A DNA stretch of 64,000 nucleotides from Candidatus Micrarchaeota archaeon (GCA_043827025.1 JBDRPL010000005.1:35569-99568); one strand, 5' to 3'. Positions 4,533 to 54,313 are shown, numbered from the stretch's first letter. A program made the numbers and translations. The notes: generated by a model from the letters alone, not told the origin.

Positions 4533-4691
4533 TCATCATCCTCTTTGAGCGATCCAAAAATCGCTGCTAGCTGACCAATCTTCTGAAAATATTGTTGGTT
4601 GGCTATAGTTGAAGTATCAAGGTAAAGGTATAAAAATATTCCTAGATGCCGTTGATGCTAAAAATAGTGTTAAAATAAAAAAAATTAATTA

Positions 4692-29902: not shown

Positions 29903-30820
29903 ATGTTGAACAACGCAGACTGGACAAACAAACAAATTGTAATATTGGCTTTTGACCACAGAGGAAGCTTCACAAAGAACCTTTTTGGGATTTCAGGAAG
30001 AGGGCCAACTGCTGAAGAATCAAAGAAGGTGTCAGATTACAAGACAGTCATTTACGAAGGATTCAAGAAAGCCCTGACAAACGGAGTTTCTAAAGATGTT
30101 GCTGGCATTTTAGTAGACGAACAATTTGGAAAAGAGATTGTGCATGATGCAAAGAAAAACGGCTTCAGATTCGCCATGCCGGTTGAAAAATCAGGGCAGG
30201 ATGAATTTGACTTCGAGTATGGCCAGGATTACCAAAAGCACATAAAGGAATTTGACCCTACGTTTTGCAAGATTCTTGTAAGATTGAATCCGGAAGGTGA
30301 TAGGGCAGTCAATGAAAGGCAGATGAAGCGCCTTAGGGAACTTGGTGAATTCCTAAAATCCATCAATAAACCTTATTTATTCGAACTTTTAGTTCCTGCA
30401 ACTCCAGAACAGTTGCAAAGCGTTGGAAATGACAAGAAGAAATATGATTTTGAATTACGCCCAAAGCTCATGGCATGGGCAGTTGCAATGGTCCAGGCAG
30501 CTGGAATTGAGCCAGATATTTGGAAACTAGAGGGTGTTGACAGGGCAGAAGATGCAAAACGAATTGTCGGGCAAGTCCAGTCTGCTGGTAGAACGGCAGG
30601 TGTTGTTACCTTAGGAAGAGGAGAAGATGCAGAAAAAGTCACAGAATGGCTTAAAATCGGAGCAAAAATCAACGGAGTCATTGGATTTGCCATTGGAAGG
30701 ACAATCTTTTGGGATGCGCTTGCAGGCCTAAGGGATGGCAAATATGACAGGCAGAAAGCAATTGAGATAATCGCTGATAATTACCAAAGATTCGTCAAAC
30801 TCTGGGTAGGGACCCGATGA
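29903..30820 (+). CDS. TIM-barrel aldolase-like protein (DUF2090 / class I aldolase-type)
   Basis: 305 aa; N-terminal ILAFDHRGSF is characteristic of DUF2090-type aldolase-like proteins; adjacent to the glpX-type FBPase. Confidence 0.5.
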   Translation: MLNNADWTNKQIVILAFDHRGSFTKNLFGISGRGPTAEESKKVSDYKTVIYEGFKKALTNGVSKDVAGILVDEQFGKEIVHDAKKNGFRFAMPVEKSGQDEFDFEYGQDYQKHIKEFDPTFCKILVRLNPEGDRAVNERQMKRLRELGEFLKSINKPYLFELLVPATPEQLQSVGNDKKKYDFELRPKLMAWAVAMVQAAGIEPDIWKLEGVDRAEDAKRIVGQVQSAGRTAGVVTLGRGEDAEKVTEWLKIGAKINGVIGFAIGRTIFWDALAGLRDGKYDRQKAIEIIADNYQRFVKLWVGTR

Positions 30821-30843
30821 ATTGAGTTCATAATGGTGAACAA

Positions 30844-31788
30844 ATGCAGGATACGATCATTCAAAACAAAGATTTTCAGAATCAACTGCTTCGAGTAACT
30901 GAAAAGGCAGCAATCGCATGTTATGAATGGATTGGCAAGAAGAATGCGAAGTCTGCAGATCAGGCAGCTGTTGATGCAATGAGAAAGGAATTCAATTTTG
31001 TTGATATTGATGGCACAGTTGTTATTGGTGAAGGAGAAAGAGATGAGGCTCCGATGCTTTATATCGGAGAAAAAGTAGGCAATGGCAAAGGCCCTGAATG
31101 TGATATAGCAGTTGATCCGTTGGAAGGAACGAATCTTTGCGCCAATAACCTGCCAAATGCAGTTGCAGTGCTTGCCCTTGCCCCAAAAGGCACGCTGTTG
31201 CATGCACCTGATACTTATATGGATAAGATAGCAGTTGGCCCTAAGATCGGCAATGCAGTCTCACTTAAACGATCTGTCAAAGAAAATCTTGAAATCGTAT
31301 CTCAAAAGCTTGGAAAACCAATGAAAGATGTTAGAGTGATAATGCTTGAACGCGATCGCCATAAACAACTGGCAAAAGAGGTTATTGATGCAGGCGCTCA
31401 GATAAAATATATCTCTGATGGAGATGTTTTCGGTGCAGTTGCAACTCTTTGGGGTAAAGTAGACATTTTGCTTGGAATAGGTGCAGCTCCTGAAGGAGTG
31501 CTTGCAGCATCTGCCCTCAAACCGCTTGGTGGTTATATGGAAGGAATGCTCAAATTCAGGAATGAAGATGAAAGAAAGAGGGCAATCGCTTATGGCATGA
31601 AAGAGCCTGATAAACTACTGACAATCAATGATCTTGTGAAAACCAATGAATCGCTTTTTATGGCGAGCGGAGTCACTGACGGAGACTACCTAAATGGCGT
31701 TAAAATTGAAGGAAAAATAGGAAAAATAAATTCTGTCGTAATAGATAAATACGGACACAGAATTATAGAAGAGAGGTTGGATATATAG
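30844..31788 (+). CDS. glpX: fructose-1,6-bisphosphatase class II (GlpX)
   Basis: 314 aa; near-identical motif block VVIGEGERDEAPMLYIGEKVG...DIAVDPLEGT and GIGAAPEGVLAA versus GlpX. Confidence 0.9.
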   Translation: MQDTIIQNKDFQNQLLRVTEKAAIACYEWIGKKNAKSADQAAVDAMRKEFNFVDIDGTVVIGEGERDEAPMLYIGEKVGNGKGPECDIAVDPLEGTNLCANNLPNAVAVLALAPKGTLLHAPDTYMDKIAVGPKIGNAVSLKRSVKENLEIVSQKLGKPMKDVRVIMLERDRHKQLAKEVIDAGAQIKYISDGDVFGAVATLWGKVDILLGIGAAPEGVLAASALKPLGGYMEGMLKFRNEDERKRAIAYGMKEPDKLLTINDLVKTNESLFMASGVTDGDYLNGVKIEGKIGKINSVVIDKYGHRIIEERLDI

Positions 31789-31794
31789 AAAGAA

Positions 31795-32010
31795 TTAGTT
31801 CATCTTTTTCATTTTTTGAGAGCATACTCTTATCAATTTAGTTACTCTCTTTCTAGACAATTCATCCAAATCCCTTCCATTTAATTTGGTCAACTGAATA
31901 GATATTTCCTGAACTGCTGCCGGGCTGATTGAGCTGGTAAAGCAGTCTTCGTAATACTGGATATCATCTTCCAGTTTTCTTCTTAACATTCCTGCAGTCA
32001 TTCTTCTCAT
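31795..32010 (-). CDS. hypothetical small protein
   Basis: 71 aa ORF, convergent with glpX; no family recognised. Confidence 0.3.
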   Translation of the reverse strand: MRRMTAGMLRRKLEDDIQYYEDCFTSSISPAAVQEISIQLTKLNGRDLDELSRKRVTKLIRVCSQKMKKMN

Positions 32011-32165
32011 ACAACAAAACCTCTCAATAAGTTTTACAAAAATTCAGAACAATTAACTTAAACAAATATGTTAGATGTTCAAAATAGATGTATTATATAT
32101 ACAACGGAACTCCTTTAAATACCTTTGGTTTGTAGTTATGAATGGGAATTCACAGCAAATTTGCA

Positions 32166-32414
32166 TTATTTTAGGTTTTTCCTTAGTAAATCCAGAGCTT
32201 CCTTTACAGTCTTATTCTTTAGTTTAACTGCTTCTTTCATATGCTCCCCGCAAAACCACACTTCGTTCGAAGGCTGGTCAGTGAGGCCTGCCCTTTCCAA
32301 TCTTTTACGCTGTTTTTTATCTTCTTTGGTTTCCTTGAAACAGACAGTATCATACTTCAAATCAGGAAAGTCTTGTATTCCCCTTCCACATATTGCGCAT
32401 ATTGGAGGTTCCAT
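32166..32414 (-). CDS. small zinc-finger protein (C-x2-C...C-x2-H)
   Basis: 82 aa; ICAICGRG...FCGEH; Lys-rich. Confidence 0.4.
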   Translation of the reverse strand: MEPPICAICGRGIQDFPDLKYDTVCFKETKEDKKQRKRLERAGLTDQPSNEVWFCGEHMKEAVKLKNKTVKEALDLLRKNLK

Positions 32415-32490
32415 GCTTCTAATTGGTGTTTAAGATTTAAATGTTTTGTGTGTGTTACATATTTAAATACTTTGAAACACTCTTTAATCT

Positions 32491-33312
32491 ATGATTGCCG
32501 TAAATAACAGACCATCCATAATCTTTCTGCGTTCCAAAAAGCAGTCTGATTCATCTGTTCATTTCAGGGACAGGCTTTCGTATCCCACATACACTGCAAT
32601 ACATCGAACCCCGGAGGAATTCGAATTTCTACGTGGCAGAATCTCTAGCATTCCTGATGCAAGGATACGTGTGCTTCAGGTTGGAATCGGAGAGGATCTT
32701 GTAGGAGAAACTCTTAGTTTGTTGGATATGCTGCATAGGACTGGCAAAGAGTATGAAATTACCTGTCTGGATCCAAATACAAGAGTTGTTTTTGGCCATG
32801 CATCGCAAAATGAATTCGAATTGCATGCCGATACTTTGTTATCCTGCGGGTTTGATGCAACGAATGCAAGAAGAATTCTCGGGGAAATGCAGATAGTCAG
32901 AGATGTACATGAAATATCTGAGGAACCATTAGATGACGGATTTCATCGTCTTCAAATGGCAACATTTCGTTTTAATATTTTACCAGGAGTCCTTGATAGG
33001 CTTGCATATGTCGTAGGGGATATTTCAGAAGATCGATTACCTGGGGATATGCAAGGATTTCATGCAATAGTTTGTTTTCATACGCTTTATCATTTAGAAC
33101 ACGATCCTCGATTAATAATTGAAGCAGTGAAAAACATGGCTTCTTATTTGCTTAAAGGAGGTTGTCTTGCAATAGATAGTGCCAGGTTTAATGTTTATGG
33201 CCTGCTTACGTCTGAATTGGTTCAAGAAATCGGGTTGAAGCTTGTTTATGATTCAAATGTACATGCAAGGCACCCCTTGAAAGAGAATCCAAGGATATAT
33301 GAACGAATTTAA
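32491..33312 (+). CDS. class I SAM-dependent methyltransferase-like protein
   Basis: 273 aa; motif-I-like VLQVGIGEDLVGET, acidic strand ITCLDPN, IVCFHTLYHLEHD, LLKGGCLAID; GC-elevated. Confidence 0.55.
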   Translation: MIAVNNRPSIIFLRSKKQSDSSVHFRDRLSYPTYTAIHRTPEEFEFLRGRISSIPDARIRVLQVGIGEDLVGETLSLLDMLHRTGKEYEITCLDPNTRVVFGHASQNEFELHADTLLSCGFDATNARRILGEMQIVRDVHEISEEPLDDGFHRLQMATFRFNILPGVLDRLAYVVGDISEDRLPGDMQGFHAIVCFHTLYHLEHDPRLIIEAVKNMASYLLKGGCLAIDSARFNVYGLLTSELVQEIGLKLVYDSNVHARHPLKENPRIYERI

Positions 33313-33391
33313 TCTATCTATCCTATGGTTATTTTCCACGTATTTCTATTTTATAAACCCTTTCTAACACAATCTACAAACATATGATTGG

Positions 33392-34645
33392 TTGATATTT
33401 ATGACACAAAGAGCTTTGGTTATGCAGGGAGGAGGACCGACGAGAGTAATTAATTCGACTCTTGTAGGGGTAGCAAGGCAGGCAAGAGTAAGGGAACTTG
33501 AATTAATTGGAGTAAGAAGGGGAATTGAAGGGATTTTGGGTGATCGACCGAACATCATCCATTTTTCAGACATCAATGATGGTAGATTAGATCTCATTTC
33601 CAGAACACCAGGCGCAGCATTAGGCACCACACGGGTAAAACCAACTCAAAAAGATTGTGAAAAAATAGTAGATCTTTTGATTGAAAATAATATCAAATAT
33701 TTATTCTATATTGGCGGAAATGATACTGCACTTGCAGTTCAATTGATGGATACGTATGCCAAATCAAAAGGTGCAGACATAGTATTTACTCATGTCATCA
33801 AAACTATTGATAATGATGTTCCAGTGAATGATCATACGCCGGGATATGGCAGCGCTGCTAGATATGTCGCTTCTGTGGTAAGGGGTGCAGCACTTGATAA
33901 TCTTGCATTGCCAGGAATATATCTTGCAGTTACTATGGGCAGAAATGCAGGTTTCCTTACCGCGGCTTCTGCACTTGCAAGAAGCAAAAATATACCTGAA
34001 CTTGGACCACACATTATTTGTTTGCCTGAAAAAGAATTTGTTGAATCTGACTTTTTATCTCAAATTCATCAGACCTATTCCCGACTTGGAAGAGCAGTCA
34101 TAGTTGTTTCTGAAGGAATATGGATTATGAAGGACGGTCAAAAAGTAGAGCTTACTAAATTATTGAAAGAAGGGTCAAAAAATGGCAATGGAAATGGGGA
34201 AGATGGGTTTTATCATCCGCAACTTTCAGGAAGCGGCGCCCTTGCAGACCATCTTTCTGCCAGAATAACTGCTGAACTCAATATAAGACGGGTTCGGGGA
34301 GATACACTTGGATATGCACAAAGAAGTTTTCTTGAAGGTTATTCAGAAGTTGATTGGAATGAAGCTCTTATGATTGGCGTTGATGCTGTGAATTACGCAG
34401 TTGATGGTCACGTATCAGGGTCTGTTGCTTTGCTAGCGAACAGAGGAGTAATATATCGATCCCACACAACAACCTGTGGGTTATCAGAGGTTGCTGACAA
34501 AGTACGGGTTCTTCCAGAAGAATTCATTGCAACAAATGGGCATGACATAACTCCTGCATTTATCGAATATCTTACTCCGTTGATAGGGATACCTCTTCTT
34601 GAAGTTGACACGTTTCTTCAGGTCGATCGTAAACGAAGGCTATAA
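33392..34645 (+). CDS. pfk: phosphofructokinase-family protein (PfkA / PPi-PFK-like)
   Basis: 417 aa; GGGPTRVIN, variant GGDGS motif (GGNDT), catalytic MGR motif TMGRNAGFL. Confidence 0.7.
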   Translation: MIFMTQRALVMQGGGPTRVINSTLVGVARQARVRELELIGVRRGIEGILGDRPNIIHFSDINDGRLDLISRTPGAALGTTRVKPTQKDCEKIVDLLIENNIKYLFYIGGNDTALAVQLMDTYAKSKGADIVFTHVIKTIDNDVPVNDHTPGYGSAARYVASVVRGAALDNLALPGIYLAVTMGRNAGFLTAASALARSKNIPELGPHIICLPEKEFVESDFLSQIHQTYSRLGRAVIVVSEGIWIMKDGQKVELTKLLKEGSKNGNGNGEDGFYHPQLSGSGALADHLSARITAELNIRRVRGDTLGYAQRSFLEGYSEVDWNEALMIGVDAVNYAVDGHVSGSVALLANRGVIYRSHTTTCGLSEVADKVRVLPEEFIATNGHDITPAFIEYLTPLIGIPLLEVDTFLQVDRKRRL

Positions 34646-37233: not shown

Positions 37234-37611
37234 TTAGATAAGTTCAACATCAACCAAACCCTTGAAATCACGATCCTTTGTCCAAAGGATTAAACCATGA
37301 CACCTTGCAGATGTGTAAATTATGCAATCAATAAGGCTTATTTTTCCATTTTTTCTTCGTTCGTCAGCATATATCCTTCCGCTGGCTACGAATACGTCCT
37401 CGTCCAATTCAAGCATTACTGAAAGGGATCTAATAGTTTCAAGGTATTTCTCAGGAGATTCATTGTTCTTATGGCACCAGGCCGAAATCTCTGCAAGCGT
37501 AATCGGACAGGTATAAACGCCGACATTCTGATAAAGCAACTTCCTGATTTTATTACCTGTTTCCGTAGACGTAAGATACTCTATCCATGCAGACGTATCT
37601 AATAAAATCAT
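37234..37611 (-). CDS. vapC: PIN-domain toxin VapC
   Basis: 125 aa; MILLDTSAWIEYL acidic PIN motif; 1-nt overlap with the upstream antitoxin gene. Confidence 0.85.
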   Translation of the reverse strand: MILLDTSAWIEYLTSTETGNKIRKLLYQNVGVYTCPITLAEISAWCHKNNESPEKYLETIRSLSVMLELDEDVFVASGRIYADERRKNGKISLIDCIIYTSARCHGLILWTKDRDFKGLVDVELI

Positions 37612-37826
37612 CAGAATTCCCTTGTTTTCTTATCTCTCTCGAAAGGTTTTGTGAAATGTTTTGCCATTCCAAATCCAAGATCAATTTCCGCCATATCTCT
37701 ATGCTTAAGCAATACAACATCGATTTCGTCGCCGATTTTCAGGTTTTCCTGCTCTAGCCGTTCCTTTGGTATAAGTACACACGCCGAAGAACCAAGAGGC
37801 CTTATTTTAGATTTAAAGATGTCCAC
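37611..37826 (-). CDS. vapB: AbrB/SpoVT-type antitoxin VapB
   Basis: 71 aa; swapped-hairpin motif GSSACVLIPKERLEQENLKIGDEI. Confidence 0.8.
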   Translation of the reverse strand: MDIFKSKIRPLGSSACVLIPKERLEQENLKIGDEIDVVLLKHRDMAEIDLGFGMAKHFTKPFERDKKTREF

Positions 37827-37900
37827 ACAATCACCAATTATAATATATTATACGAAAGGTTTATAATTATAATTGATTATAATTTATCTGTCATTTTGTT

Positions 37901-38278
37901 TCATCTCTTTACCTCTTTCAATAGATCCTCATCAAAGCTAATCAATTCTGAGCCTGTCGTTCTTGCCAGATAAACTAATGACGCGTCAATAAAGCTCAGC
38001 TGATGCTTCTGTTTCTTGTAGATATCTATGATTTTACCAAAATCATCCTCTGAGACAAATATGATTCTAAAATTTTCAGCTTGTTGCACAGTTTCAAGGA
38101 ATGCTTTTGAAGCTTCCAATCCATTTTTATACAACAAAACCGTTGCTGTTTCCCCGATTACGTATTCTGAAAGCAGGAACTTCCTATCGACGTAATTCTT
38201 CATCATGGAAATTGCCTTCTCGTGATTGGAATCATCCTTATCGTAAAACGAAATTAAAAAAGAGCTGTCAAGGATCAT
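37901..38278 (-). CDS. vapC: PIN-domain toxin VapC (second copy)
   Basis: 125 aa; MILDSSFLISFYDKDD...; abuts the upstream small gene. Confidence 0.85.
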   Translation of the reverse strand: MILDSSFLISFYDKDDSNHEKAISMMKNYVDRKFLLSEYVIGETATVLLYKNGLEASKAFLETVQQAENFRIIFVSEDDFGKIIDIYKKQKHQLSFIDASLVYLARTTGSELISFDEDLLKEVKR

Positions 38279-38545
38279 CTAATCACGTTTCCCATAAAGG
38301 ATTTTGTCTATATTTTTACTCAAATCTTTCTCGCCAGATCTGAATGCAATCCTATCATAAGTATCAAAGAAGCTTTTGTACTTCTTCTTCGATTTCTGCT
38401 GATCCTTTTCCTTCAAATGCTCCTTGGCCAACCTAGCGATTTCATCCAAAGCTTCACCAGTATTCAGGTCGTGCAAATGTGCGTATTCATAAATGAATTC
38501 CTTTGTCTTCTCATCAACTTTTCGAACTGCGAATATGTCTGCCAT
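38279..38545 (-). CDS. putative antitoxin partner of VapC
   Basis: 88 aa; small acidic/basic protein immediately upstream of the PIN gene; fold not assigned. Confidence 0.6.
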   Translation of the reverse strand: MADIFAVRKVDEKTKEFIYEYAHLHDLNTGEALDEIARLAKEHLKEKDQQKSKKKYKSFFDTYDRIAFRSGEKDLSKNIDKILYGKRD

Positions 38546-40575: not shown

Positions 40576-40678
40576 CAAACCTACTTCCAAAAGATTCCTT
40601 CGTCACCTGCCGTTCAATTTTTCACATCCTTTTTAAACCCTCTTTTTCAATCCTAATCATCTAATTTAGGGTGGCAAA

Positions 40679-42595
40679 ATGAACATTACTCAAAAGATAA
40701 TAAAGGAGCACTTAGTCGAAGGAGAAATGGTTGCTGGGAAGGAAATCGGAATCAAGATAGACCAGACTCTAACCCAGGATGCGACGGGAACAATGGCATA
40801 CCTGGAATTTGAGGCATTGAATATTCCAAGAGCGAAAACCGAATTGTCAGTGAGTTACGTTGACCATAATATGCTTCAAACCGATTTCAAGAATCCGGAT
40901 GATCATTTATACTTACAGTCAATTGCTGCAAAATATGGCATTCTATTTTCAAGGCCTGGGAATGGCATATGCCATCAAGTCCATTTAGAGAGATTCGCAA
41001 GGCCTGGAAGAACATTGATTGGAAGTGATTCCCATACGCCTACTGCAGGAGGTATTGGTTCATTATCTATAGGTGCAGGAGGATTAGATGTTGCACTTGC
41101 AATGGGTGGAGATACCTTTTATTTGAATATGCCTAAAGTAGTTGGCGTAAAACTAACTGGAAAATTAGGTCCATGGACATCTGCAAAGGATGTGGTTCTG
41201 GAGTTATTGAAAAGAGTCACTGTAAAAGGAGGAAAGGGCAAGGTTTACGAGTATTTTGGCCCGGGAACAAAAACATTGTCTGTTGCAGAACGAGCTACAA
41301 TCACAAACATGGGAACAGAAACAGGGGCAACAAGCTCAATTTTCCCTTCTGATGAAATCACAAAAGAGTTCCTGAAATCCCAAAAAAGAGAAAATCAGTG
41401 GATAGAATTGAAGGCGGATTCAGAACAATATGATGAAATAATTGAAATCGATTTGTCTTCAATAGAGCCCTTGATTGCCAAACCACATTCACCAGGAGAG
41501 GTTGTGCCTGTGAAAAAGGTAGAGGGAACAAGAATAAGGCAGGTTATTGTGGGATCATGTACTAATTCATCCTACAAGGATTTGATGATTTTTGCAAAGG
41601 CAATGAAAGGAAAGACAGTTCATCCTGAGGTAAGCCTTTGTGTTTTACCAGGTTCGAGACAGGTCTATCAGGAAATTGCAAGAAATGGCGCATTGGCAGA
41701 CCTTATCAAAGCAGGTGCAAGAATATTGGAATCAGCCTGTGGCCCCTGCATAGGCATGGGACAAGCACCACCATCTGAGAGTGTCACAATAAGGACATTC
41801 AACAGGAATTTCGAAGGAAGATGCGGGACAAAAGATGCAAAGGCATATCTATGTTCTCCGGAAGTTGCAGCAGCATGTGCAATATATGGAGAAATTGCAG
41901 ACCCACGGAAATTAGGTGTATGCCCTGAAATAGAGCCTTCAGCAGGAATTGTTGATGATTCTATGATAATCCTGCCTACAAAGGACGGATCTTCAGTTAA
42001 AATAGTAAAAGGCCCGAACATAAAACCATTGCCTGAGATGAAACCCTTGGAGGACAATATTTCAAAAGAGGTTTTGTTGAAGGTCGGGGACAATATTACA
42101 ACAGACCATATAATGCCTGCGGGCGCACAGATATTGCCATTGCGCTCTAACATCCCGGCAATTTCTGAATTCGTTTACAATTCCGTTGACAAGGACTTCG
42201 TAAAAAGAGCAAAGGAAAAACAAGGAGGAATGATTATCGGCGGCGAAAACTATGGCCAGGGATCTTCAAGGGAACATGCTGCAATTGCTCCTTTATACTT
42301 AGGAATAAAGGCAAAGATAGTGAAATCCTATGCAAGGATACATCTTGCAAATTTAGTTAATTGGGGAATACTGCCTTTGGAATTTGCCGATCCGTCAGAT
42401 TATGACAAGATTGAACAGGGAGACAAATTGGAACTTATGGATATTAAGGAATCATTAAAGAATGGAAAGAACATAAAAGTAAAAAACACAACAAAATCAT
42501 TCGAGTTTGAGGCAAAATATAATTTATCTAAAAGAGACGTTGCAACACTTGTTGCTGGCGGTTCAATTAATTATGTAAAACAAAGACATGGATAA
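40679..42595 (+). CDS. acn: aconitate hydratase (short mitochondrial-type aconitase-family protein)
   Basis: 638 aa; GICHQVHLERFARPGRTLIGSDSHTPTAGGIGSLSIGAGGLDVA matches the aconitase Fe-S ligand region; Cys ligands in GSCTNSSY and ACGPCIGMGQ; swivel domain at the C-terminus. Confidence 0.9.
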   Translation: MNITQKIIKEHLVEGEMVAGKEIGIKIDQTLTQDATGTMAYLEFEALNIPRAKTELSVSYVDHNMLQTDFKNPDDHLYLQSIAAKYGILFSRPGNGICHQVHLERFARPGRTLIGSDSHTPTAGGIGSLSIGAGGLDVALAMGGDTFYLNMPKVVGVKLTGKLGPWTSAKDVVLELLKRVTVKGGKGKVYEYFGPGTKTLSVAERATITNMGTETGATSSIFPSDEITKEFLKSQKRENQWIELKADSEQYDEIIEIDLSSIEPLIAKPHSPGEVVPVKKVEGTRIRQVIVGSCTNSSYKDLMIFAKAMKGKTVHPEVSLCVLPGSRQVYQEIARNGALADLIKAGARILESACGPCIGMGQAPPSESVTIRTFNRNFEGRCGTKDAKAYLCSPEVAAACAIYGEIADPRKLGVCPEIEPSAGIVDDSMIILPTKDGSSVKIVKGPNIKPLPEMKPLEDNISKEVLLKVGDNITTDHIMPAGAQILPLRSNIPAISEFVYNSVDKDFVKRAKEKQGGMIIGGENYGQGSSREHAAIAPLYLGIKAKIVKSYARIHLANLVNWGILPLEFADPSDYDKIEQGDKLELMDIKESLKNGKNIKVKNTTKSFEFEAKYNLSKRDVATLVAGGSINYVKQRHG

Positions 42596-42601
42596 TACTA
42601 G

Positions 42602-43849
42602 GTGAAAAATATGGTGATAAGTGGAGAAAAAATAAAGATGGAGAATGGAAAACTAGTGGTACCCAACATACCTTATATCCCATACATCAAAGGGGACGGA
42701 GTTGGAGAAGACATCTGGCCAGTAGTCCAAAGAATCATTGATGCAGCAGTTGCAAAGGCATATGGAAACACTAACAGGGTGCCGAACAAAGCAATATTTT
42801 GGCTTGAAGCTCCTGCCGGAGATAAGGCATATAAAGAAACCGGCGAATATCTTCCCCAAAACACAGTAGATATGATAAGAGAATACCTAGTTGCAATAAA
42901 GGGTCCTTTAACTACTCCAGTTGGTGGGGGCCACAGATCATTGAATGTAACTATGCGCCAAGTGTTAGACCTATATTGTTGTGTCAGACCTGTCAAATGG
43001 TTCGAGGGGGTTCCAAATCCAATGAAAAATCCTGAGAAATTGAATGTGGTGATTTTCAGGGAAAATACAGAAGATGTATATGCGGGAATCGAATTCAAGG
43101 AAGGCAGCGATGAAGTAAAAAAAGTGATTGACCTGATGTCCAACATGGGCAAGAAGATAAGGCCAGATTCAGGCATCGGAATAAAACCGATTTCAATAAC
43201 TGGAACCAAAAGATTGGTGGAAGCTGCTATTGATTATGCAATAAAATATAGGAAAACTAGAGTGACTTTGATGCACAAGGGAAACATAATGAAATTTACA
43301 GAAGGCGCATTCAGGGAATGGGGTTATGCGGTTGCAAAGGAAAAGTTTCCTGATAAGGTCATAACAGAACAGGAAGTCACGGATAACCACGGAGGAAAAA
43401 TCCCTGAGGGAAAAATAATGATAAATGACAGAATTGCAGACTCAATGTTCCAGCAGGTTTTATTAAGGCCTGATGAATATGAGGTAATTGCCACAACCAA
43501 TCTGAATGGGGATTACATAAGCGATGCATGTGCTGCACAGGTTGGCGGTTTGGGAATTGCTCCTGGCGCAAACATCAATTATAAGACCGGACATGCATTG
43601 TTTGAAGCAACACATGGCACTGCACCAAAGCATGCAGGGCAGGACAAGGTGAATCCAGGCTCTTTGCTTCTTTCAGCAGTCATGATGCTTGATTATATGG
43701 GATGGGAAGAGGCTGCCAAAATGATTGAATCAGCATTTGAAAAGACAATCAACCAAAAGATCGTGACCTACGATTTTGCAAGGCAGATGGAAGGCGCAAC
43801 TGAAGTCAAATGTTCTGAATTTGGCGCGAAAATAATTGAAAATCTTTGA
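42602..43849 (+). CDS. icd: isocitrate dehydrogenase (NADP-type)
   Basis: 415 aa; signature [27 protein letters not shown]. Confidence 0.9.
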
Positions 43850-43881
43850 ATGGGAAACAATGAATAACGAGGGACAATCAC

Positions 43882-45114
43882 ATGGCAAGAAGAAAAATCC
43901 GCGAATACGATGGGCGAAGGCTTTTTGGCGAATACTTTGGAATTCCTAGCGAATCGATCCTAGTTGATTCTTCTACGGATATTGAAGGATTGGGCAAAAC
44001 TCACCCCTGGCTGAATTCAAAAAAACTGGTGGTGAAGCCAGATGTGTTGATGGGGAAAAAAGGCAAGCACAACCTCATTCTCCTAAATGCGGATTTTTCT
44101 GCTGCCAAAGGCTTCATAAAAGAGCACCTCAATAAAGAAATGAAAATCGGGAACATTTCAGGAGTTCTGACACACTTCATAATCCAGCCATTTGTCCCTC
44201 ATCAAAATGAATATTTCGTTTCCATCATGAGCGGAAGGGATGCTGACAAGATATACATCTCTGAAAAAGGAGGGGTTGACATTGAAGAGAACTGGGAAAC
44301 AGTCAAACACATAGATGTTCCTATTGCCGGCCCCTTTCCCAAAGAAGAATTGGCAAAATGCCTTTCTTCATTTGGAAATGAAAAAGATGCAACAACGAAA
44401 TTCATAGAAAAACTTTACCAGTTCTTTGCAGAATATGATTTTTCATACTTGGAGCTAAACCCGTTTTGTTTTGTGGATGGAAAGGCAATTCCATTGGGAT
44501 TTGTTGGAGAGGTGGATGATTGTGCAGAATATAAGGATTATAAGAGATGGGGCAATTTGGCATTTCCCCAGTCCTTTGGCAAGAAACTGACGAAAGAGGA
44601 AGAGTTCATAAAAGACCTGGATTCCAAGACAGGGGCTTCCCTGAAACTTACAATTTTGAATCCAAAGGGCAAGATATGGCCCATGGTCGCAGGAGGAGGC
44701 GCATCAGTTATCTATGCAGACACAATTGTAGATCTTGGATGCGGCAATGAGCTTGCCATATATGGGGAATATTCCGGGGACCCCAATGAAGAAGAAACCT
44801 ATCAGTATGCCAAGACTGTTTTGGACCTGATGACAAGGGAATCAAGAAAAGACGGCAAGGTTCTGCTGATAGGAGGCGGAGTTGCAAATTTCACAGATGT
44901 TGCAAAAACATTCAAAGGCATCATCCGAGCATTGAAGGAATATAAGGAAAAACTAAAGAAAAATAATGTCAAGATATACATCAGAAGGGGCGGACCAAAT
45001 TATGAGGTTGGCCTGGAACTTATGAGAAAACTAGGAGGGGAATTAGGAGTACCTATGGAGGTTTATGGCCCAGAAACCCACATGACAAAGATTGTCGCGT
45101 TAGCTTTGAAGTGA
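43882..45114 (+). CDS. aclB: ATP-citrate lyase, subunit B (ATP-grasp/N-terminal part of ACLY)
   Basis: 410 aa; long blocks colinear with the human ACLY N-terminus: HPWL...LVVKPD, EPFVPH, ASLKLTILNPKGKIWPMVAGGGASVIYADTIVDLG...NELA(I/N)YGEYSG, RRGGPNYEVGL. Confidence 0.9.
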   Translation: MARRKIREYDGRRLFGEYFGIPSESILVDSSTDIEGLGKTHPWLNSKKLVVKPDVLMGKKGKHNLILLNADFSAAKGFIKEHLNKEMKIGNISGVLTHFIIQPFVPHQNEYFVSIMSGRDADKIYISEKGGVDIEENWETVKHIDVPIAGPFPKEELAKCLSSFGNEKDATTKFIEKLYQFFAEYDFSYLELNPFCFVDGKAIPLGFVGEVDDCAEYKDYKRWGNLAFPQSFGKKLTKEEEFIKDLDSKTGASLKLTILNPKGKIWPMVAGGGASVIYADTIVDLGCGNELAIYGEYSGDPNEEETYQYAKTVLDLMTRESRKDGKVLLIGGGVANFTDVAKTFKGIIRALKEYKEKLKKNNVKIYIRRGGPNYEVGLELMRKLGGELGVPMEVYGPETHMTKIVALALK

Positions 45115-45118
45115 TACT

Positions 45119-46942
45119 ATGACCGATTTATTCACAAACAAAACACAGGCATTCATATACAATTTTAAGGCAAACCCTGTGCAGAGAATGCTTGATTTTG
45201 ATTACATCTGCAGAAGAAAAACCCCTAGCATTGCAGGGCTTATCAATCCAGGAGGATCAGGTTTTCACAAAGCATTTTTTGGTGCAACTGAAATCATGCT
45301 TCCCATATATTCAAGCATTGATGCTGCAACAAAAGCTCATCCAAATGCAGATGTGATGGTTAATTTTGCTTCGTTCAGGAGCGCCTACGCATCATCATTG
45401 GAAGCGCTTAACAATACTTCCATAAAGACCGTTGCCATCATAGCCGAGGGGATTCCTGAAAGACTGACAAAGGAATTGATTGCAATAGCAAACAAAAAGA
45501 AGAAATGGATAATCGGGCCTGCAACAGTTGGAGGATTGGCAGCAGGCAAATTCAGGATAGGGAATACTGCAGGCACCATTGACAACATAATCAAATGCAA
45601 GGCTTACAGACCCGGCTCAGTTGGCTTTGTTTCAAAATCAGGAGGTCTTTCCAATGAGATGTTCAATGTCATTGCAAGAACTACTGATGGAATTTATGAA
45701 GGAATTGCAATTGGCGGAGATGCATGCCCAGGCTCCAAATTAATAGACCATATCCTAAGGTATGAAAATAATCCTGCAATCAAAATGATTGTTGCTCTTG
45801 GAGAACTTGGAGGAAATGAGGAATATGAGATCGCCAATGCAGTGAAAGCGAAAAAAATAACCAAACCAATTGTCATGTGGGTTGCAGGAACCTGTGCAAA
45901 TGTTTTCCCAGGGGAAGTGCAGTTCGGCCACGCAGGCGCAAAAAGCGGTAAACAAGAAAATTCAGCAGCTGCCAAGAACAAGGCATTGAAAGAAGCTGGA
46001 GTCATCGTGCCAAATTCATACGAGGATTTTGACCAAAGGATAAAGGAAACGTTTGACAGGTTGAAGAAAGATGGCAAAATAAAGGAAATTGAAGAGCCCG
46101 AGGTTCCAAAATTACCTATGGACTATTTAGAAGCACTGAAAAAAGGAGTGATACGTAAACAAACCAATTTCATCTGCTCAATTTCAGACGATAGGGGGGA
46201 TGAGCCCTATTATGCAGGCATTCCAATGAGCAAAATGATTGAGGATGACTATTCTGTTGGCGAAATAATTTCCTTATTGTGGTTTAAGAAAAGATTGCCA
46301 AAATATGCCACGAAATTCATTGAAACTGTGATGATAATTGCAGCAGATCACGGGCCATGTGTATCAGGTGCCCACAATACAATAATTACTGCAAGGGCAG
46401 GGAAGGACCTGATATCCTCATTATGCTCTGGCTTATTGACAATCGGCCCAAGATTCGGAGGTGCAATTGATGATGCTGCAAGATATTTCAAGCATGCAGC
46501 TGATTCTGGAATGGCTCCTGATGAATTTGTCAGTGAAATGAAGAAAAAGGGCATTAATATCCCTGGAATTGGCCATAGGATAAAATCTGCAAAAAACCCT
46601 GACAAGAGGGTCGAAATACTAAAGGCGTATGCAAAGAAAAACTTCCCCCAGACAAAATACCTTGACTATGCTTTGTCAGTTGAAAAAGAGACGCTGAAAA
46701 AGGCAGACAACCTTATTTTAAATGTGGATGGCTGTATAGGCATTTTATTCGTGGATTTGATGGATGGTTGCGAGGCATTTTCAAAGGAAGAACTTAATTC
46801 AATTGTTGATATAGGCTACCTGAACGGTTTGTTCATCTTGGCAAGATCAATAGGGTTAATGGGCCATGTATTTGACCAAAAGAGGCTGAAACAGACACTC
46901 TACAGGCATCCATGGGATGATGTGTTGTTTATAGACCGTTAA
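45119..46942 (+). CDS. aclA: ATP-citrate lyase, subunit A (CoA-binding and citryl-CoA lyase part)
   Basis: 607 aa; colinear with the ACLY C-terminal half: QRMLDFDYICRR, catalytic-His region GHAGA, IAADHGPCVSGAHNTIITARAGKDLISSL, LYRHPWDDV. Confidence 0.9.
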   Translation: MTDLFTNKTQAFIYNFKANPVQRMLDFDYICRRKTPSIAGLINPGGSGFHKAFFGATEIMLPIYSSIDAATKAHPNADVMVNFASFRSAYASSLEALNNTSIKTVAIIAEGIPERLTKELIAIANKKKKWIIGPATVGGLAAGKFRIGNTAGTIDNIIKCKAYRPGSVGFVSKSGGLSNEMFNVIARTTDGIYEGIAIGGDACPGSKLIDHILRYENNPAIKMIVALGELGGNEEYEIANAVKAKKITKPIVMWVAGTCANVFPGEVQFGHAGAKSGKQENSAAAKNKALKEAGVIVPNSYEDFDQRIKETFDRLKKDGKIKEIEEPEVPKLPMDYLEALKKGVIRKQTNFICSISDDRGDEPYYAGIPMSKMIEDDYSVGEIISLLWFKKRLPKYATKFIETVMIIAADHGPCVSGAHNTIITARAGKDLISSLCSGLLTIGPRFGGAIDDAARYFKHAADSGMAPDEFVSEMKKKGINIPGIGHRIKSAKNPDKRVEILKAYAKKNFPQTKYLDYALSVEKETLKKADNLILNVDGCIGILFVDLMDGCEAFSKEELNSIVDIGYLNGLFILARSIGLMGHVFDQKRLKQTLYRHPWDDVLFIDR

Positions 46943-47390
46943 GCGCGAATATCCAATAATTAAGCACTGAGGCAAAGCTTACCCACAGCAGATAAGGGAT
47001 CATAAGATAGGTTGCTGTTTTGGAAACCCTGTAAAATGCCAACATTGTTGCCACAATAGAAAGCCACAGCGCGATAATGCAGATGAGCCCATAAATCGGA
47101 GACCTCAAACCAAAGAACAGGACAGACCATAGCAGATTAAGCCCAAGTTGAACGGAATACAATGAAATAGCAGTCTTATTTTTCTTTGCAATCCAAACCA
47201 GATAGAATGCAACCCCCATCAATATATATAGAAGCGTCCAAACAGGCCCAAAAAGCCAGGAAGGAGGATTAAACGATGGTTTTTCCAAAGTTGAATACCA
47301 AGTATTAACTGAAGAAATCGTGAAATAAGAACCTACAAAGCCCACCAGCAAAGGAATCAAAATTGCAATACCAAGCATTTTCCAGTTCAT
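46929..47390 (-). CDS. tspO: TspO/MBR tryptophan-rich sensory protein
   Basis: 153 aa; five TM helices; Trp-rich motifs (PSWLFGPVWTLLY). Confidence 0.85.
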   Translation of the reverse strand: MNWKMLGIAILIPLLVGFVGSYFTISSVNTWYSTLEKPSFNPPSWLFGPVWTLLYILMGVAFYLVWIAKKNKTAISLYSVQLGLNLLWSVLFFGLRSPIYGLICIIALWLSIVATMLAFYRVSKTATYLMIPYLLWVSFASVLNYWIFALNGL

Positions 47391-48318: not shown

Positions 48319-49149
48319 GTGTTTGAAGATGTAAATATAGGTTTAAAAGCATTACGAAACATAACTTTGTTCATGAAGACAACCACTAAACCAAAGGTTC
48401 AGAACCAGGTTGGCATTGCTAGAATAAGCAAGGACACTTCTCCTAAGGAAGCACAAAGATTGTTTGGGGCATTTAAAAAATTGACTGCTACTGCAGGCAA
48501 AATCGTCTGTCTCGAAACAGATTTGCCTTTCGGAAAGTCAGAACACAGGGAATGGCATGAGGCCGTAGAAGCTGGGGAAAGAACAGTCTTGCTTGCGCTT
48601 AAAGAAGGCAGTGCTGTAGGAACTTTCTCGATTGTTGAAGGTGCTTTACCAGTTTTATCAATCACAGACGGCATAATCTCAAGCACAGTCGATATGGTTG
48701 TTGCAGGTCTTGACCTCACAGCCGCTTTTATACTAGAGAATCAAAGAGGAAAAGGTGTTTGTAGGGCACTTGCAGAAGAAGTCAGAAAAACAGCAGTCGA
48801 ACAGGCAACAGGCACTAACAATGACGTTCATATGAGCATCTCGACAGGAGAAGAAGCATATGAGATAACAAATCCAATACTTGCAAGAATGCTTGGAAAA
48901 ACAAATGAAGAAATAGAAGGACTCGCAACTGTTGTTCTCTTCAGCATGTTCGCAGGAATGAAAGGAAAAACACTTACCTCTGATGAAATGAAAGGGATTG
49001 TTGATATTACCCAAAGAATTGGAATAAATCCAGATTCCGCAGCAATTAAGACAATACTTGACAGCTGGGTTTCAAAAGGAAATGCAAGATTCGTAGGCCA
49101 CTCAGTAGATGGTGCAGAGCCTGTTTGGGTTATGCATCCTTTGAGTTGA
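48319..49149 (+). CDS. GNAT-like acetyltransferase-domain protein
   Basis: 276 aa (start may be at the internal MKTTT); motif-A-like ENQRGKGVCRALAEEV. Confidence 0.5.
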   Translation: MFEDVNIGLKALRNITLFMKTTTKPKVQNQVGIARISKDTSPKEAQRLFGAFKKLTATAGKIVCLETDLPFGKSEHREWHEAVEAGERTVLLALKEGSAVGTFSIVEGALPVLSITDGIISSTVDMVVAGLDLTAAFILENQRGKGVCRALAEEVRKTAVEQATGTNNDVHMSISTGEEAYEITNPILARMLGKTNEEIEGLATVVLFSMFAGMKGKTLTSDEMKGIVDITQRIGINPDSAAIKTILDSWVSKGNARFVGHSVDGAEPVWVMHPLS

Positions 49150-49172
49150 AATTTTTCCATTTTAGATGAGCC

Positions 49173-49619
49173 CTAATGACTAATGCCATCAAGTTCAGTA
49201 AAACTAAAAACGCCTGTTTCTTCTTCGGACCCGATAGTACAGTTTTCTTTCTCCCTTATACATGTTAAACTAAAGGGGTGCTTGCCATCTAATGCATCTA
49301 CCTTGCAGTTATATTGCTTTTTATCTTTGGTTTCTTCTGCACTGCATGAACATCCAAAAACAGCGAAATCAGGATACCCTTTTTCCCTTGCAAGTTCTTT
49401 TGCCTTCAGAAGGCAATTCCGTTCCACTGAAGATTTCCCTATCTGTGACCACAGATCAACAGTCTGATTCATAGTCTTATTGATCTCTGTTTCATTAGCC
49501 AGAACATCCTGGTTTCTGGGAATAAGGAGATTGACAAATATTGTGACGAGTACAGAAATAGCAAGTACTAACGCTATGACCGCAAAGAACATCGTCATTG
49601 ATCTTTTTTTGGATAGCAT
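49173..49619 (-). CDS. membrane-anchored Cys-rich hypothetical protein
   Basis: 148 aa; N-terminal TM helix; six Cys in the ectodomain. Confidence 0.4.
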   Translation of the reverse strand: MLSKKRSMTMFFAVIALVLAISVLVTIFVNLLIPRNQDVLANETEINKTMNQTVDLWSQIGKSSVERNCLLKAKELAREKGYPDFAVFGCSCSAEETKDKKQYNCKVDALDGKHPFSLTCIREKENCTIGSEEETGVFSFTELDGISH

Positions 49620-49623
49620 AAAA

Positions 49624-49923
49624 TCATTTCTCTTTCTTCAGCCTTTCTATCTCTTTTCTTGCAGTGCCGCAAACCTTGCTCATTGGATCTGCCTTTAGGC
49701 AATTCTGGCAAATGAATATAGGTTCAATGTCTTTAACCATTTTCTCTGCACTGCCTATTGCCATATTCCCTAGACACTGGGCATTCCCCTTTAGAACTTC
49801 CTCGTGCATATTCCCAACATTCGAATCAGATTCAAAAAAGAGCATCATCTCCTTTCCACAGCAATTGCATTTTACCAAGTAAACATCTCGGCCATATGCT
49901 TTTTCTTTTTGCATGGAATTCAC
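49624..49923 (-). CDS. small zinc-finger protein
   Basis: 99 aa; CNCCGKE...CQNC...C. Confidence 0.4.
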   Translation of the reverse strand: MNSMQKEKAYGRDVYLVKCNCCGKEMMLFFESDSNVGNMHEEVLKGNAQCLGNMAIGSAEKMVKDIEPIFICQNCLKADPMSKVCGTARKEIERLKKEK

Positions 49924-50798
49924 TGAAAAACCCTATATGGAACAATAAGGCCGGGCATCCTTTTGAAAACAGGGTCTATGGCCACTGCCTCGTCTCCTTT
50001 ACATTCGATTGCAAACAAGACCAAATGAGAAGGATTTCCCTTTATATCTGTTGAGCCGCCTGTAATTGAAATAGCATATATCTTGTTTCCTTGAAAAGCC
50101 AAATCAAACGCCTTTCCCTCTCTTAAGGTATCGTTTGCCCATGCAGGGGGTTTGGATTTTTCATCCTGAGTGATTACTTTGACCAGTTGTTGCCAAGAAC
50201 GCTGAAGAGTTTGCATCAAAGCCTCGTTTTTATCCTTTGCTTTCAAAGCTTTGCTTATTTCCGATAGAAGCGTGAGTTTCATATATTGTTGGGGCGTATG
50301 CATATGCAGCTCCCCTTCTTTATCAAGATAAAGTTGGGCAACAGCTTCCTTTCCATTAATAACAAGAACTGTGTTCGTCCAACTATCGAATTTAACTTTT
50401 AAGGATCCTGATTCAATGAGCCCTGCCAAATCACCTTTACTACCCTCTTTCTGCGAAGCCAGCTTATTTACGATGAATCTGCAGGCATCGTCCCTGGAAA
50501 GAATCTCTTTGGCTAAATAATTCAATGAACCAAAGTATCTAACCTCCTCAGAACGTGCTCCGCCATATCTTGCCTCTGGATTATCAAAATAAACCCTTCC
50601 GTGTTGTATGATTCGTGAAACTGCATCTTTGAGATCCTCTTCCACACCTTGTTTTTGAATAAGTGCCATGGAATACATTGGGAATGAAACTTTAAGAATC
50701 TTATACTTTAACAGATAGTAATGGAACCTCAAGAATTTAAGGACTGGCTCTCGACTTACACGAATGCCGACCAGTGCTTGGAAGCATTCAGAAACCAA
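49920..50798 (-). CDS. hypothetical protein (probable start at the internal Met MYSMALIQ...)
   Basis: 292 aa ORF overlapping the start of the divergent gene; no family recognised. Confidence 0.4.
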   Translation of the reverse strand: MVSECFQALVGIRVSREPVLKFLRFHYYLLKYKILKVSFPMYSMALIQKQGVEEDLKDAVSRIIQHGRVYFDNPEARYGGARSEEVRYFGSLNYLAKEILSRDDACRFIVNKLASQKEGSKGDLAGLIESGSLKVKFDSWTNTVLVINGKEAVAQLYLDKEGELHMHTPQQYMKLTLLSEISKALKAKDKNEALMQTLQRSWQQLVKVITQDEKSKPPAWANDTLREGKAFDLAFQGNKIYAISITGGSTDIKGNPSHLVLFAIECKGDEAVAIDPVFKRMPGLIVPYRVFQ

Positions 50799-53017: not shown

Positions 53018-54313
53018 TCATTTCGGCTTGAGATAGCCCCATTTCTCCAAGGCTTCTCTTAGTTCTACACACTTATTGGCCTTTTCTTTTAAGCTTTTGC
53101 TTTCCATTGTTGCTTCAATAGCCTGCATAGTTGCCTTTGCACCTGCACGTGTCCCTTTTGGATGGCCATGGATTCCCCCACTTACAAGCAACACAAACTC
53201 ATTTCCATAAATTTTCATGACATCTGGTACCAACCCTGGATGCAACCCGCCAGATGAAACTGGAAAGGCTGATTTTATGTGGCCCCAATCCTGTTCTAAT
53301 AGCATATTCTGGACAGGCTTTGTCTTTGCATCACGCAAAAGATCTGCAAGTGCTTCAACCTCGCCTTTTGCAGCAGTTAATTTGCCAACTTCTGTTCCTG
53401 AATGAATTTGGCTTACTCCGATCAATCGCATCATCTTTGCCAAGAACTGCATTGTCAATCCATGTTTTGGATTCCTGTCAAATGCAGCATGCATTGCACG
53501 ATGTGCATGAATAGCCAAACCAAGATCTGAACAATAATCCCGCATTGTTTGGACGCCAGCATATCCTGCAATTACAACATCAATCATGCAATAATTCCAG
53601 CCATTGTCTGCAAGCAGTTTTGCCCGCTTTTTCATTACTTCTGTCTCACTAGTTATGTTTATGAACGCGGATTTCACTTCTCCTGTTTCTTTTTCAGCCT
53701 TTTCCCTCATTTTTGTCATGAGATTAACGCGATCCTCGAACCTATTGAATTTCTGCGAAGTTAAATTCTCATCATCCTTTACGAAATCGAATCCTCCCAT
53801 CCAGGTTTCATAACCAATTTCTGCGTGTTCTTTTGCACTGAAACCAATCTTTGGCTTTGGCACTGCGCCTGTCAAAGGCCGCTTATAGACTTTCATCATT
53901 TTCCTAAGGCCATCTATCCCAAATTTAGGTCCTTTAAAATATTTTATATATTCTTTTGGCAAAGTCGCATCTATTAATCTAAGATTCTTCACAGCCTTCA
54001 TTCCGAAGATATTGCCTGCGATTCCGCTGAGAAGCTGGCAGGCGTTTCCTTCTTCCCAAAGGTCTAACGGATAGGATACCTTGAGGTAATTCCCATTGAT
54101 CTCGAATGCAGTTGCCTCTAAAGATTTCATTCTTGGGGGCAATCTCTGGAGAGTTGTCCATGTTCCTGTTGAACTCTCAGATGCGATTCTTCCTGCAACT
54201 TCCTTGAGGCCCATTCCCTTATCTGGCTCAAAATAAAACAAACAGATTATCTCGTCTTTAGACGGCTTGTATTTCAAATCCACAAATTCATCATACCAGT
54301 CGATCTTCGCCAT
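53018..54313 (-). CDS. rbcL: ribulose-1,5-bisphosphate carboxylase large subunit, form III (archaeal type)
   Basis: 431 aa; ESSTGTWTT, carbamylated-Lys motif GGFDFVKDDEN, IHAHRAMHAAFDR, SGGLHPG. Confidence 0.85.
   Translation of the reverse strand: MAKIDWYDEFVDLKYKPSKDEIICLFYFEPDKGMGLKEVAGRIASESSTGTWTTLQRLPPRMKSLEATAFEINGNYLKVSYPLDLWEEGNACQLLSGIAGNIFGMKAVKNLRLIDATLPKEYIKYFKGPKFGIDGLRKMMKVYKRPLTGAVPKPKIGFSAKEHAEIGYETWMGGFDFVKDDENLTSQKFNRFEDRVNLMTKMREKAEKETGEVKSAFINITSETEVMKKRAKLLADNGWNYCMIDVVIAGYAGVQTMRDYCSDLGLAIHAHRAMHAAFDRNPKHGLTMQFLAKMMRLIGVSQIHSGTEVGKLTAAKGEVEALADLLRDAKTKPVQNMLLEQDWGHIKSAFPVSSGGLHPGLVPDVMKIYGNEFVLLVSGGIHGHPKGTRAGAKATMQAIEATMESKSLKEKANKCVELREALEKWGYLKPK

Follow-up and report, generated by a model that had tools for sequence, protein, structure and literature searches.

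A conserved acn-icd-aclB-aclA cassette in Micrarchaeota encodes a predicted archaeal/eukaryote-like ATP-citrate lyase and probably forms a stand-alone citrate node

What is an ATP-citrate lyase (ACL) doing beside an aconitase and an isocitrate dehydrogenase (IDH) in an archaeon whose relatives are described as lacking the tricarboxylic acid (TCA) cycle? The question is raised by positions 40679-46942 of a 64,000-nt stretch of DNA from a Candidatus Micrarchaeota archaeon (GCA_043827025.1; JBDRPL010000005.1:35569-99568), the whole of which is termed the window here. The original prediction had placed at these positions a four-gene cluster for aconitase, IDH and a two-subunit ACL, and had read it as the citrate-side arm of a reductive TCA (rTCA) cycle or a citrate-cleavage route to acetyl-CoA. 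The gene content and the exact limits held, with a single adjustment at the start of icd (see below). Four open reading frames (ORFs) on the plus strand, in the order acn, icd, aclB, aclA, fill the interval exactly:

40679..42595, plus strand: acn, 638-aa aconitate hydratase of the PRK07229/TIGR01342 type (GenBank MFH2105807.1, 'aconitate hydratase')
42602..43849, plus strand: icd, 415 aa as an ORF, homodimer-type NADP-dependent isocitrate dehydrogenase
43882..45114, plus strand: aclB, 410 aa, ATP-grasp and citrate-binding subunit, counterpart of plant ACLA and of residues 1-425 in human ACLY
45119..46942, plus strand: aclA, 607 aa, CoA-binding/phospho-histidine subunit fused to a citryl-CoA lyase module, counterpart of plant ACLB and of residues 490-1101 in human ACLY

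The domain content of AclB and AclA is that of an ACL. AclB carries the ATP-grasp domain of ATP-citrate synthases (PF24948; 212 bits, cut-off 83) and the ACL citrate-binding domain (PF16114; 291 bits, cut-off 26.8), and AclA combines a CoA-ligase domain (PF00549; 68 bits) with a C-terminal citrate-synthase-like domain (PF00285; residues 396-596). When compared with PDB chains, AclB scored 488 bits with the ACL of Methanosaeta concilii (6hxi_A), 381 bits with human ACLY, 184 bits with Chlorobium ACL, 61 bits with citryl-CoA synthetase (CCS) and 30 bits with the beta subunit of succinyl-CoA synthetase (SCS). The corresponding scores of AclA were 864 bits (6hxi_B), 766 bits (human ACLY), 423 bits (Chlorobium, 6hxj_B), 98 bits (best SCS alpha subunit), 79 bits (CCS) and 53 bits (stand-alone citryl-CoA lyase, CCL). 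The claimed colinearity with both halves of ACLY was borne out: AclB 29-409 aligns to human residues 35-419 and AclA 2-605 to residues 490-1094 with one single-residue gap only, and the boundary between the subunits coincides with the linker of the human enzyme (residues 420-489). With E-values of 1e-112 to 1e-259, chance similarity is excluded.

The catalytic residues are in place. The phospho-histidine loop is intact, with AclA His271 in EVQFGHAGA aligned to human H760, and so is the citryl-CoA lyase triad His411, His486 and Asp537 (human H900, H975 and D1026). In AclB, the motifs EYSGDP, VANFTDV and IRRGGPNY are conserved with respect to 3mwd_A. They match human G309, N346, T348 and R379, the citrate-site residues of ACLY in the 3MWD structure; these human residue numbers were counted off the printed alignment. 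The two other gene products matched equivalog models above their cut-offs: Acn matched NF005558 with 989 bits (cut-off 612) and showed the Pfam domains Aconitase and Aconitase_C, and IDH matched TIGR00183, the prokaryotic NADP-IDH model, with 632 bits (cut-off 567). Since domain architecture, bit-score ranking and catalytic residues agree, the enzyme identities assigned in the cluster are considered almost certain. By sequence, AclB and AclA are predicted to form a complete heteromeric ACL (EC 2.3.3.8) of the archaeal/eukaryote-like type, with all checked catalytic residues intact.

Could the two ACL genes instead encode an SCS or a CCS/CCL pair? Database names point that way: in GenBank, AclA is mis-named 'citrate/2-methylcitrate synthase' (MFH2105810.1) and its homologue in Ca. 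Bilamarchaeum is mis-named 'Succinate--CoA ligase [ADP-forming] subunit alpha'. There are also weak NCBIfam matches to SCS and CCL models, which lie well under the cut-offs of these models; the SucC/SucD equivalog cut-offs were not reached (TIGR01016, 85 vs. 376 bits; NF004230, 143 vs. 336 bits). The PDB scores for ACL (488/864) far exceed those for CCS (61/79) and SCS (30/98), and AclB possesses the ACL-specific citrate-binding domain. Moreover, the lyase module sits inside the 607-aa AclA, whereas CCS/CCL systems encode a separate lyase of about 260 aa. Domain content, lyase-module fusion and score ranking thus rule out both alternatives, and the chance that either applies is negligible. The reading as a true two-subunit ACL stands: a phospho-histidine segment is present, and the affinity is to ACL.

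In order to determine how the cassette is distributed, the four window proteins were compared by tblastn with 80 related loci from many phyla. The order acn-icd-aclB-aclA was present in eight of the eight Micrarchaeota loci recovered and in a TA06 bacterium, and permuted orders were found in Hodarchaeota, Bathyarchaeia, Thermoplasmata and others. Across the 80 loci, acn and icd were the sole recurrent neighbours of aclBA. Clustering of the flanking ORFs of 11 and then 80 loci revealed no conserved flanks of the Micrarchaeota cassettes and, among the neighbours that would fix a direction (transporters, gdh/glt, kor/por), none that is conserved in Micrarchaeota. A Pfam scan of the nearest Micrarchaeota neighbours returned unrelated genes, except in the closest species-representative genome (L002, Bilamarchaeaceae), where an aspartate kinase gene (AA_kinase and ACT domains; 3771-5102, plus strand) lies between acn and icd. 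The type metagenome-assembled genome (MAG) of Ca. Bilamarchaeum (L004) has the full acn-icd-aclBA cassette. Thus, the four-gene cassette is a conserved unit in the phylum Micrarchaeota.

The ACL type itself is more widespread. A pattern scan of species-representative genomes found it in Micrarchaeota, Methanotrichaceae, Thermoplasmatota, Hod- and Promethearchaeota (Asgard), Bathyarchaeia, Altiarchaeota and several bacterial groups, and ACL in DPANN and Asgard archaea has already been published (PMC11976288; bioRxiv 10.1101/2022.10.25.513756). The description of ACL as rare in archaea was therefore overstated. In Desulfofervidaceae and Syntrophobacter (L018:4737-15124, L023, L075), acn-aclB-aclA is accompanied by a resolvase-like gene and by genes for a monomeric IDH, malate dehydrogenase and a two-subunit fumarase (fumAB). 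These clusters hold a fuller rTCA gene set than those of Micrarchaeota, as expected of a real reductive cycle.

The relationships of AclA were analyzed in a neighbor-joining (NJ) tree of 59 sequences (Kimura distances, 100 bootstraps), a rough tree with a midpoint root only and no Chlorobium-type or CCS outgroups. The window AclA grouped with those of L002 and P0014 (100%) as part of a Micrarchaeota subclade supported at 86%. Plant-type eukaryotic ACLB joined a second such subclade (86%), and the joint clade of Micrarchaeota and plant-type eukaryotes had a bootstrap of 88%. Human ACLY was placed elsewhere, outside this clade. The tree, which is rough and should not be over-read, suggests that plant-type eukaryotic ACL nests within Micrarchaeota, repeating the published placement of eukaryotic ACLA/B with DPANN (PMC11976288).

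A variant of AclA was noticed among the prokaryotic sequences. It has about 1003-1040 aa with an internal partial duplication (L082:1924-7738, also L083 and L084; proteins P0002-P0013 and P0023). Copy 1 keeps the phospho-His loop, and its lyase motifs look degraded; in copy 2 the His loop is degraded and the lyase module is intact. Copy 1 is 64% identical to human ACLY and grouped with it at 100% in the NJ tree. In L082, a microbial-mat MAG (GCA_964484815.1), the gene belongs to an operon aclB-aclA(dup)-icd near argJ and an argH-like lyase gene.

What the cassette does for its host depends on whether it belongs to a full cycle. Taken together, the predicted proteins connect acetyl-CoA and oxaloacetate, citrate, isocitrate and 2-oxoglutarate; this chemistry is not in doubt, and the role and the direction are inferred. 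None of the scanned window ORFs of at least 150 aa encodes 2-oxoglutarate:ferredoxin oxidoreductase (OGOR), pyruvate:ferredoxin oxidoreductase (POR), fumarate reductase, fumarase, malate dehydrogenase or SCS. TCA genes were likewise missing from about 9 kb of extra flank on the left side, obtained from look-ups on the edge proteins, and no other TCA-cycle gene lies beside the eight Micrarchaeota cassettes. The sister lineage LFWA-III, which includes Ca. Bilamarchaeum, is described as fermentative, with no components of the TCA cycle or the electron transport chain and MAGs of about 1.2-1.3 Mb (PMC8561730). POR was not detected in any LFWA-III MAG, and KorAB/OforAB, an NADPH-linked group 3b hydrogenase and de novo synthesis of arginine and lysine were reported for them (PMC8561730). 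A stand-alone node is thus considered the likely role, rather than an arm of the rTCA cycle.

As such, the cassette would be a self-contained citrate node outside any full cycle. It would link acetyl-CoA and oxaloacetate (with ADP and Pi) reversibly to citrate (with ATP and CoA), and citrate via isocitrate to 2-oxoglutarate, CO2 and NADPH. In this node, ACL, whose reaction is reversible, would form ATP and stand in for citrate synthase. The output of the node would be 2-oxoglutarate for glutamate, arginine and lysine, plus NADPH, in a fermentative host without the rest of the TCA cycle. Such a supply is proposed because a cell that makes arginine and lysine in the absence of a TCA cycle has to obtain 2-oxoglutarate by another route. 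Biosynthetic genes are found nearby, namely carAB in the window, aspartate kinase inside the L002 operon, and argJ with the argH-like lyase gene near aclB-aclA-icd of L082. The ACL reaction is given as fully reversible, and Desulfobacter postgatei as using ACL for ATP synthesis, by Moller et al. (1987) as cited in PMC12137691. A node that makes 2-oxoglutarate is favoured because the adjoining or inserted genes are biosynthetic and because of the precedents of Desulfobacter and of the methanotrophic archaea ANME-1/ANME-2c (see below). A parallel exists in Clostridium, in which the genes for a Re-citrate synthase, an aconitase of this type and IDH form one operon that serves glutamate synthesis.

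The oxidative, anabolic direction of the node is proposed tentatively, at slightly less than an even call, and several points weigh against it. No sequence feature fixes the direction, all three enzymes being reversible. The absence of citrate synthase is taken from a published statement on related MAGs, and the ACL cluster had escaped that same reconstruction. Supplies of oxaloacetate and of acetyl-CoA are presumed. KorAB, reported in the sister MAGs, would together with the cassette permit a reductive route from succinyl-CoA to acetyl-CoA (PMC8561730). Finally, some bacteria with the same ACL type, the Desulfofervidaceae and Syntrophobacter described above, link ACL to mdh and fumAB as in a real rTCA cycle.

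A complete CO2-fixing rTCA cycle, of which the cluster would be one arm, is nevertheless highly unlikely. ACL is the signature gene of that cycle, KorAB is reported in the sister MAGs (PMC8561730), the same ACL type clusters with mdh and fumAB in the bacteria just named, and a survey rates Micrarchaeota as theoretically rTCA-capable (bioRxiv 10.1101/2022.10.25.513756). Its table of theoretically complete rTCA cycles, the sole source of such a claim for Micrarchaeota, however, combines accessions from different MAGs, including ARMAN-2, and neither the scanned window ORFs, the extra flank nor the flanks of the eight Micrarchaeota cassettes hold a further cycle gene. The sister MAGs are small and fermentative and lack TCA cycle, electron transport chain and POR (PMC8561730). 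Thus, the clustering of ACL with aconitase and IDH was confirmed, and its interpretation as the citrate-side arm of an rTCA cycle was not supported. A shorter reductive route would start from 2-oxoglutarate derived from glutamate or made by KorAB, proceed through carboxylation by IDH to isocitrate and on to citrate, and end with ACL yielding oxaloacetate and acetyl-CoA, the latter for isoprenoid lipids. It would resemble the reductive glutamine metabolism of animal cells, and every step is reversible. The group 3b NADPH-linked hydrogenase and KorAB of the sister MAGs, in which POR went undetected, suit it as well (PMC8561730). This route would, however, require an external supply of glutamate or succinyl-CoA, and the reported de novo synthesis of arginine and lysine uses up 2-oxoglutarate instead of yielding it; we regard it as unlikely.

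Alternatively, the cassette may split citrate that is imported from the host or the environment of the archaeon, part of it being cleaved by ACL at the cost of ATP to acetyl-CoA and oxaloacetate and the remainder passing through aconitase and IDH to 2-oxoglutarate and NADPH. Cleavage is the canonical direction of ACL, the same trio (ACLY, ACO1, IDH1) handles exported citrate in the eukaryotic cytosol, and a single operon of citrate-consuming enzymes suits a shared substrate. DPANN archaea rely on partners for metabolites, and with POR undetected in the sister MAGs an alternative source of acetyl-CoA would be useful (PMC8561730). The nesting of plant-type eukaryotic ACL in a Micrarchaeota clade (NJ tree; PMC11976288) is also in keeping with this idea. 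However, neither the window nor the direct neighbourhood of the eight cassettes showed a citrate transporter, the availability and uptake of citrate are assumed, and the neighbouring genes of amino-acid biosynthesis are compatible with citrate splitting and with oxidative 2-oxoglutarate formation alike. Citrate splitting, the main rival of the oxidative node, is a possible, if doubtful, role. An extension of it would make acn-icd-aclBA the prokaryotic counterpart of the cytosolic ACLY-ACO1-IDH1 set, with a TCA-less episymbiont splitting the citrate of its partner in a two-cell citrate shuttle. Eukaryotic heteromeric ACL would then have descended from a Micrarchaeota-type cassette, as might be argued because plant-type ACL nests inside the Micrarchaeota clade; this combination of ideas is very unlikely.

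The host of the cluster belongs to the Bilamarchaeaceae/Anstonellales group within the Micrarchaeota (DPANN), and the locus is chromosomal. All four proteins are already in GenBank as MFH2105807 to MFH2105810 (Candidatus Micrarchaeota MAG), where AclB is named merely "ATP citrate lyase citrate-binding domain-containing protein", and the exact AclA sequence also occurs in the Logan assembly of SRR26275510. Among species-representative genomes, the closest AclA is that of the Bilamarchaeaceae MAG mentioned above (77% identity), followed by those of other Micrarchaeota, among them the type MAG of Ca. Bilamarchaeum dharawalense (73% AclA identity). The window has a GC content of about 0.40. Its archaeal character is evident from an S13/S4/S11/RpoD cluster, an archaeal SAM synthetase and an HTH_10 regulator. 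The cluster (GC 0.40-0.42) hardly departs from its surroundings (about 0.39), every Micrarchaeota locus recovered carries the cassette, and those loci form a clade; a recently acquired island found no support.

Much of this was known before. The ACL type, its occurrence in DPANN, its affinity to eukaryotic ACL and the sequences themselves are on record, and no new enzyme or pathway is described here. Modestly new are the mis-annotation of AclA and the recognition that Micrarchaeota from a lineage described as having no TCA enzymes share a conserved set of four such genes. Evidently, the cassette in the type MAG of that lineage was passed over in its published reconstruction (PMC8561730). The GenBank names of AclA and its homologue (citrate/2-methylcitrate synthase, succinate--CoA ligase) are worth fixing, and the conserved four-gene order can serve to recognize ACL of the archaeal/eukaryote-like type in a simple way. 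A node between citrate and 2-oxoglutarate alters the view of the supply of glutamate-family precursors, acetyl-CoA and possibly ATP in these DPANN archaea, which are comparatively self-sufficient. The presence of plant-type ACL within Micrarchaeota is an independent repeat of a published observation that is relevant to how cytosolic acetyl-CoA metabolism arose in eukaryotes.

The layout of the locus points to joint expression of the four genes. The intergenic gaps between acn, icd, aclB and aclA measure 6, 32 and 4 nt. The mechanical start of the icd ORF, GTG at 42602, falls within a Shine-Dalgarno-like AGGTG (42600-42604). Since this motif precedes an in-frame ATG at 42611 and the Logan call gives a product of 412 aa (GenBank, 411 aa), that ATG is probably the start of icd, giving 412 aa. 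Two candidate expression signals were read by eye ahead of acn:

40630..40637, plus strand: candidate archaeal TATA-like box TTTTTAAA, about 45 nt 5' of the acn start
40670..40674, plus strand: Shine-Dalgarno-like GGTGG, 4 nt ahead of the acn ATG

It is plausible that TTTTTAAA would serve as the single promoter of all four genes. A scan for sigma-70 promoters and terminators with bacterial models gave site counts no higher than in shuffled sequence and was uninformative, and no internal terminator signal rose above shuffled expectation within the four-gene run. Tight spacing and shared orientation, the Shine-Dalgarno-like motifs and the lack of an internal terminator signal above the shuffled level suggest that acn-icd-aclB-aclA would be co-transcribed as one operon.

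Several observations concern the immediate surroundings. Downstream, a gene for a TspO/MBR family membrane protein (46929-47390, minus strand) is convergent with aclA and overlaps its final 14 nt. Directly 5' of acn, the segment 38684-40575 (plus strand) encodes a 441-aa protein with a sub-threshold radical-SAM match (27.9 bits, cut-off 29.5) and a 167-aa protein without family; neither is conserved beside the cassette in other Micrarchaeota. At 37234-38545 (minus strand), two PIN-domain genes, each with a small upstream ORF, likely represent tandem VapBC-type toxin-antitoxin pairs.

A RuBisCO of form III had been predicted at 53-54 kb, and the gene is present:

53018-54313, minus strand: type III RuBisCO (TIGR03326 equivalog, 580 bits, cut-off 497)

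Together with the ACL cluster, it had been taken to signal an unusual carbon metabolism. Present evidence does not support such a combination. Many DPANN genomes encode a type III RuBisCO, a form that commonly serves nucleotide salvage there. On its own, it is no indicator of unusual autotrophy. Neither AMP phosphorylase nor ribose-1,5-bisphosphate isomerase is encoded adjacent to the gene, whose neighbours encode an M48 peptidase, a 255-aa protein without family match and a HEAT-repeat protein.

Elsewhere in the window, genes for FtsZ, KaiC, type-IV-pilus-like proteins, carAB, pyrophosphate (PPi)-dependent phosphofructokinase and GlpX fructose-bisphosphatase were found. The last two belong to a sugar-phosphate cluster at 29903-34645 (plus strand), which comprises a DUF2090 aldolase-like protein with weak tagatose-bisphosphate-aldolase similarity, a GlpX-type fructose-1,6-bisphosphatase, a 273-aa ORF and the PPi-dependent phosphofructokinase (NF010675, 358 bits). 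No Pfam or NCBIfam match was obtained for ORFs of 636, 416, 276 and 292 aa at 16785-18695 (plus strand), 11705-12955 (minus strand) and 48319-50798. Rfam and tRNA scans of the window detected two tRNAs only, both distant from the cluster.

When compared with known systems, the bacterial enzymes are the more remote. Hydrogenobacter CCS and CCL (6HXQ, 6HXP) have homologous domains and the same overall chemistry, but there it proceeds in two steps and with a separate lyase protein; the window proteins score only 61, 79 and 53 bits with them. The ACL of Chlorobium limicola (6HXJ) shares the enzyme family and the two-subunit layout, but it is far more distant (184 and 423 bits) than the archaeal and eukaryotic enzymes and works in a complete autotrophic rTCA cycle. 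The partial oxidative TCA branch of ANME-1/ANME-2c combines ACL, aconitase and IDH activities as the window does, and its ACL was proposed to be ATP-forming in a branch yielding 2-oxoglutarate without a full cycle (PMC9012536). ANME-1/ANME-2c are large-genome methanotrophs, unlike a DPANN archaeon with a genome of about 1.2 Mb, and the likeness is one of activities. AclA is colinear throughout with its eukaryotic counterparts, sharing 65% identity with Arabidopsis ACLB and 55% with human ACLY 490-1094. The eukaryotic enzyme differs in that it works in the cytosol on citrate exported from mitochondria, and the human form is a single chain with the linker 420-489, which is absent in the window. 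The ACL of Methanosaeta concilii (Methanothrix soehngenii; 6HXI/6ZNW) has the two-gene split, the domain order and the length of the window enzyme, with about 61% AclA identity, and shares all catalytic motifs, including the Asp mutated in 6ZNW. The gene neighbourhoods differ: in Methanothrix, aclBA is followed by a gene for a LeuC/HacA-like large subunit (32-37% identical to the window Acn) and icd is missing, whereas in the window a full-length aconitase gene and icd stand 5' of aclBA.

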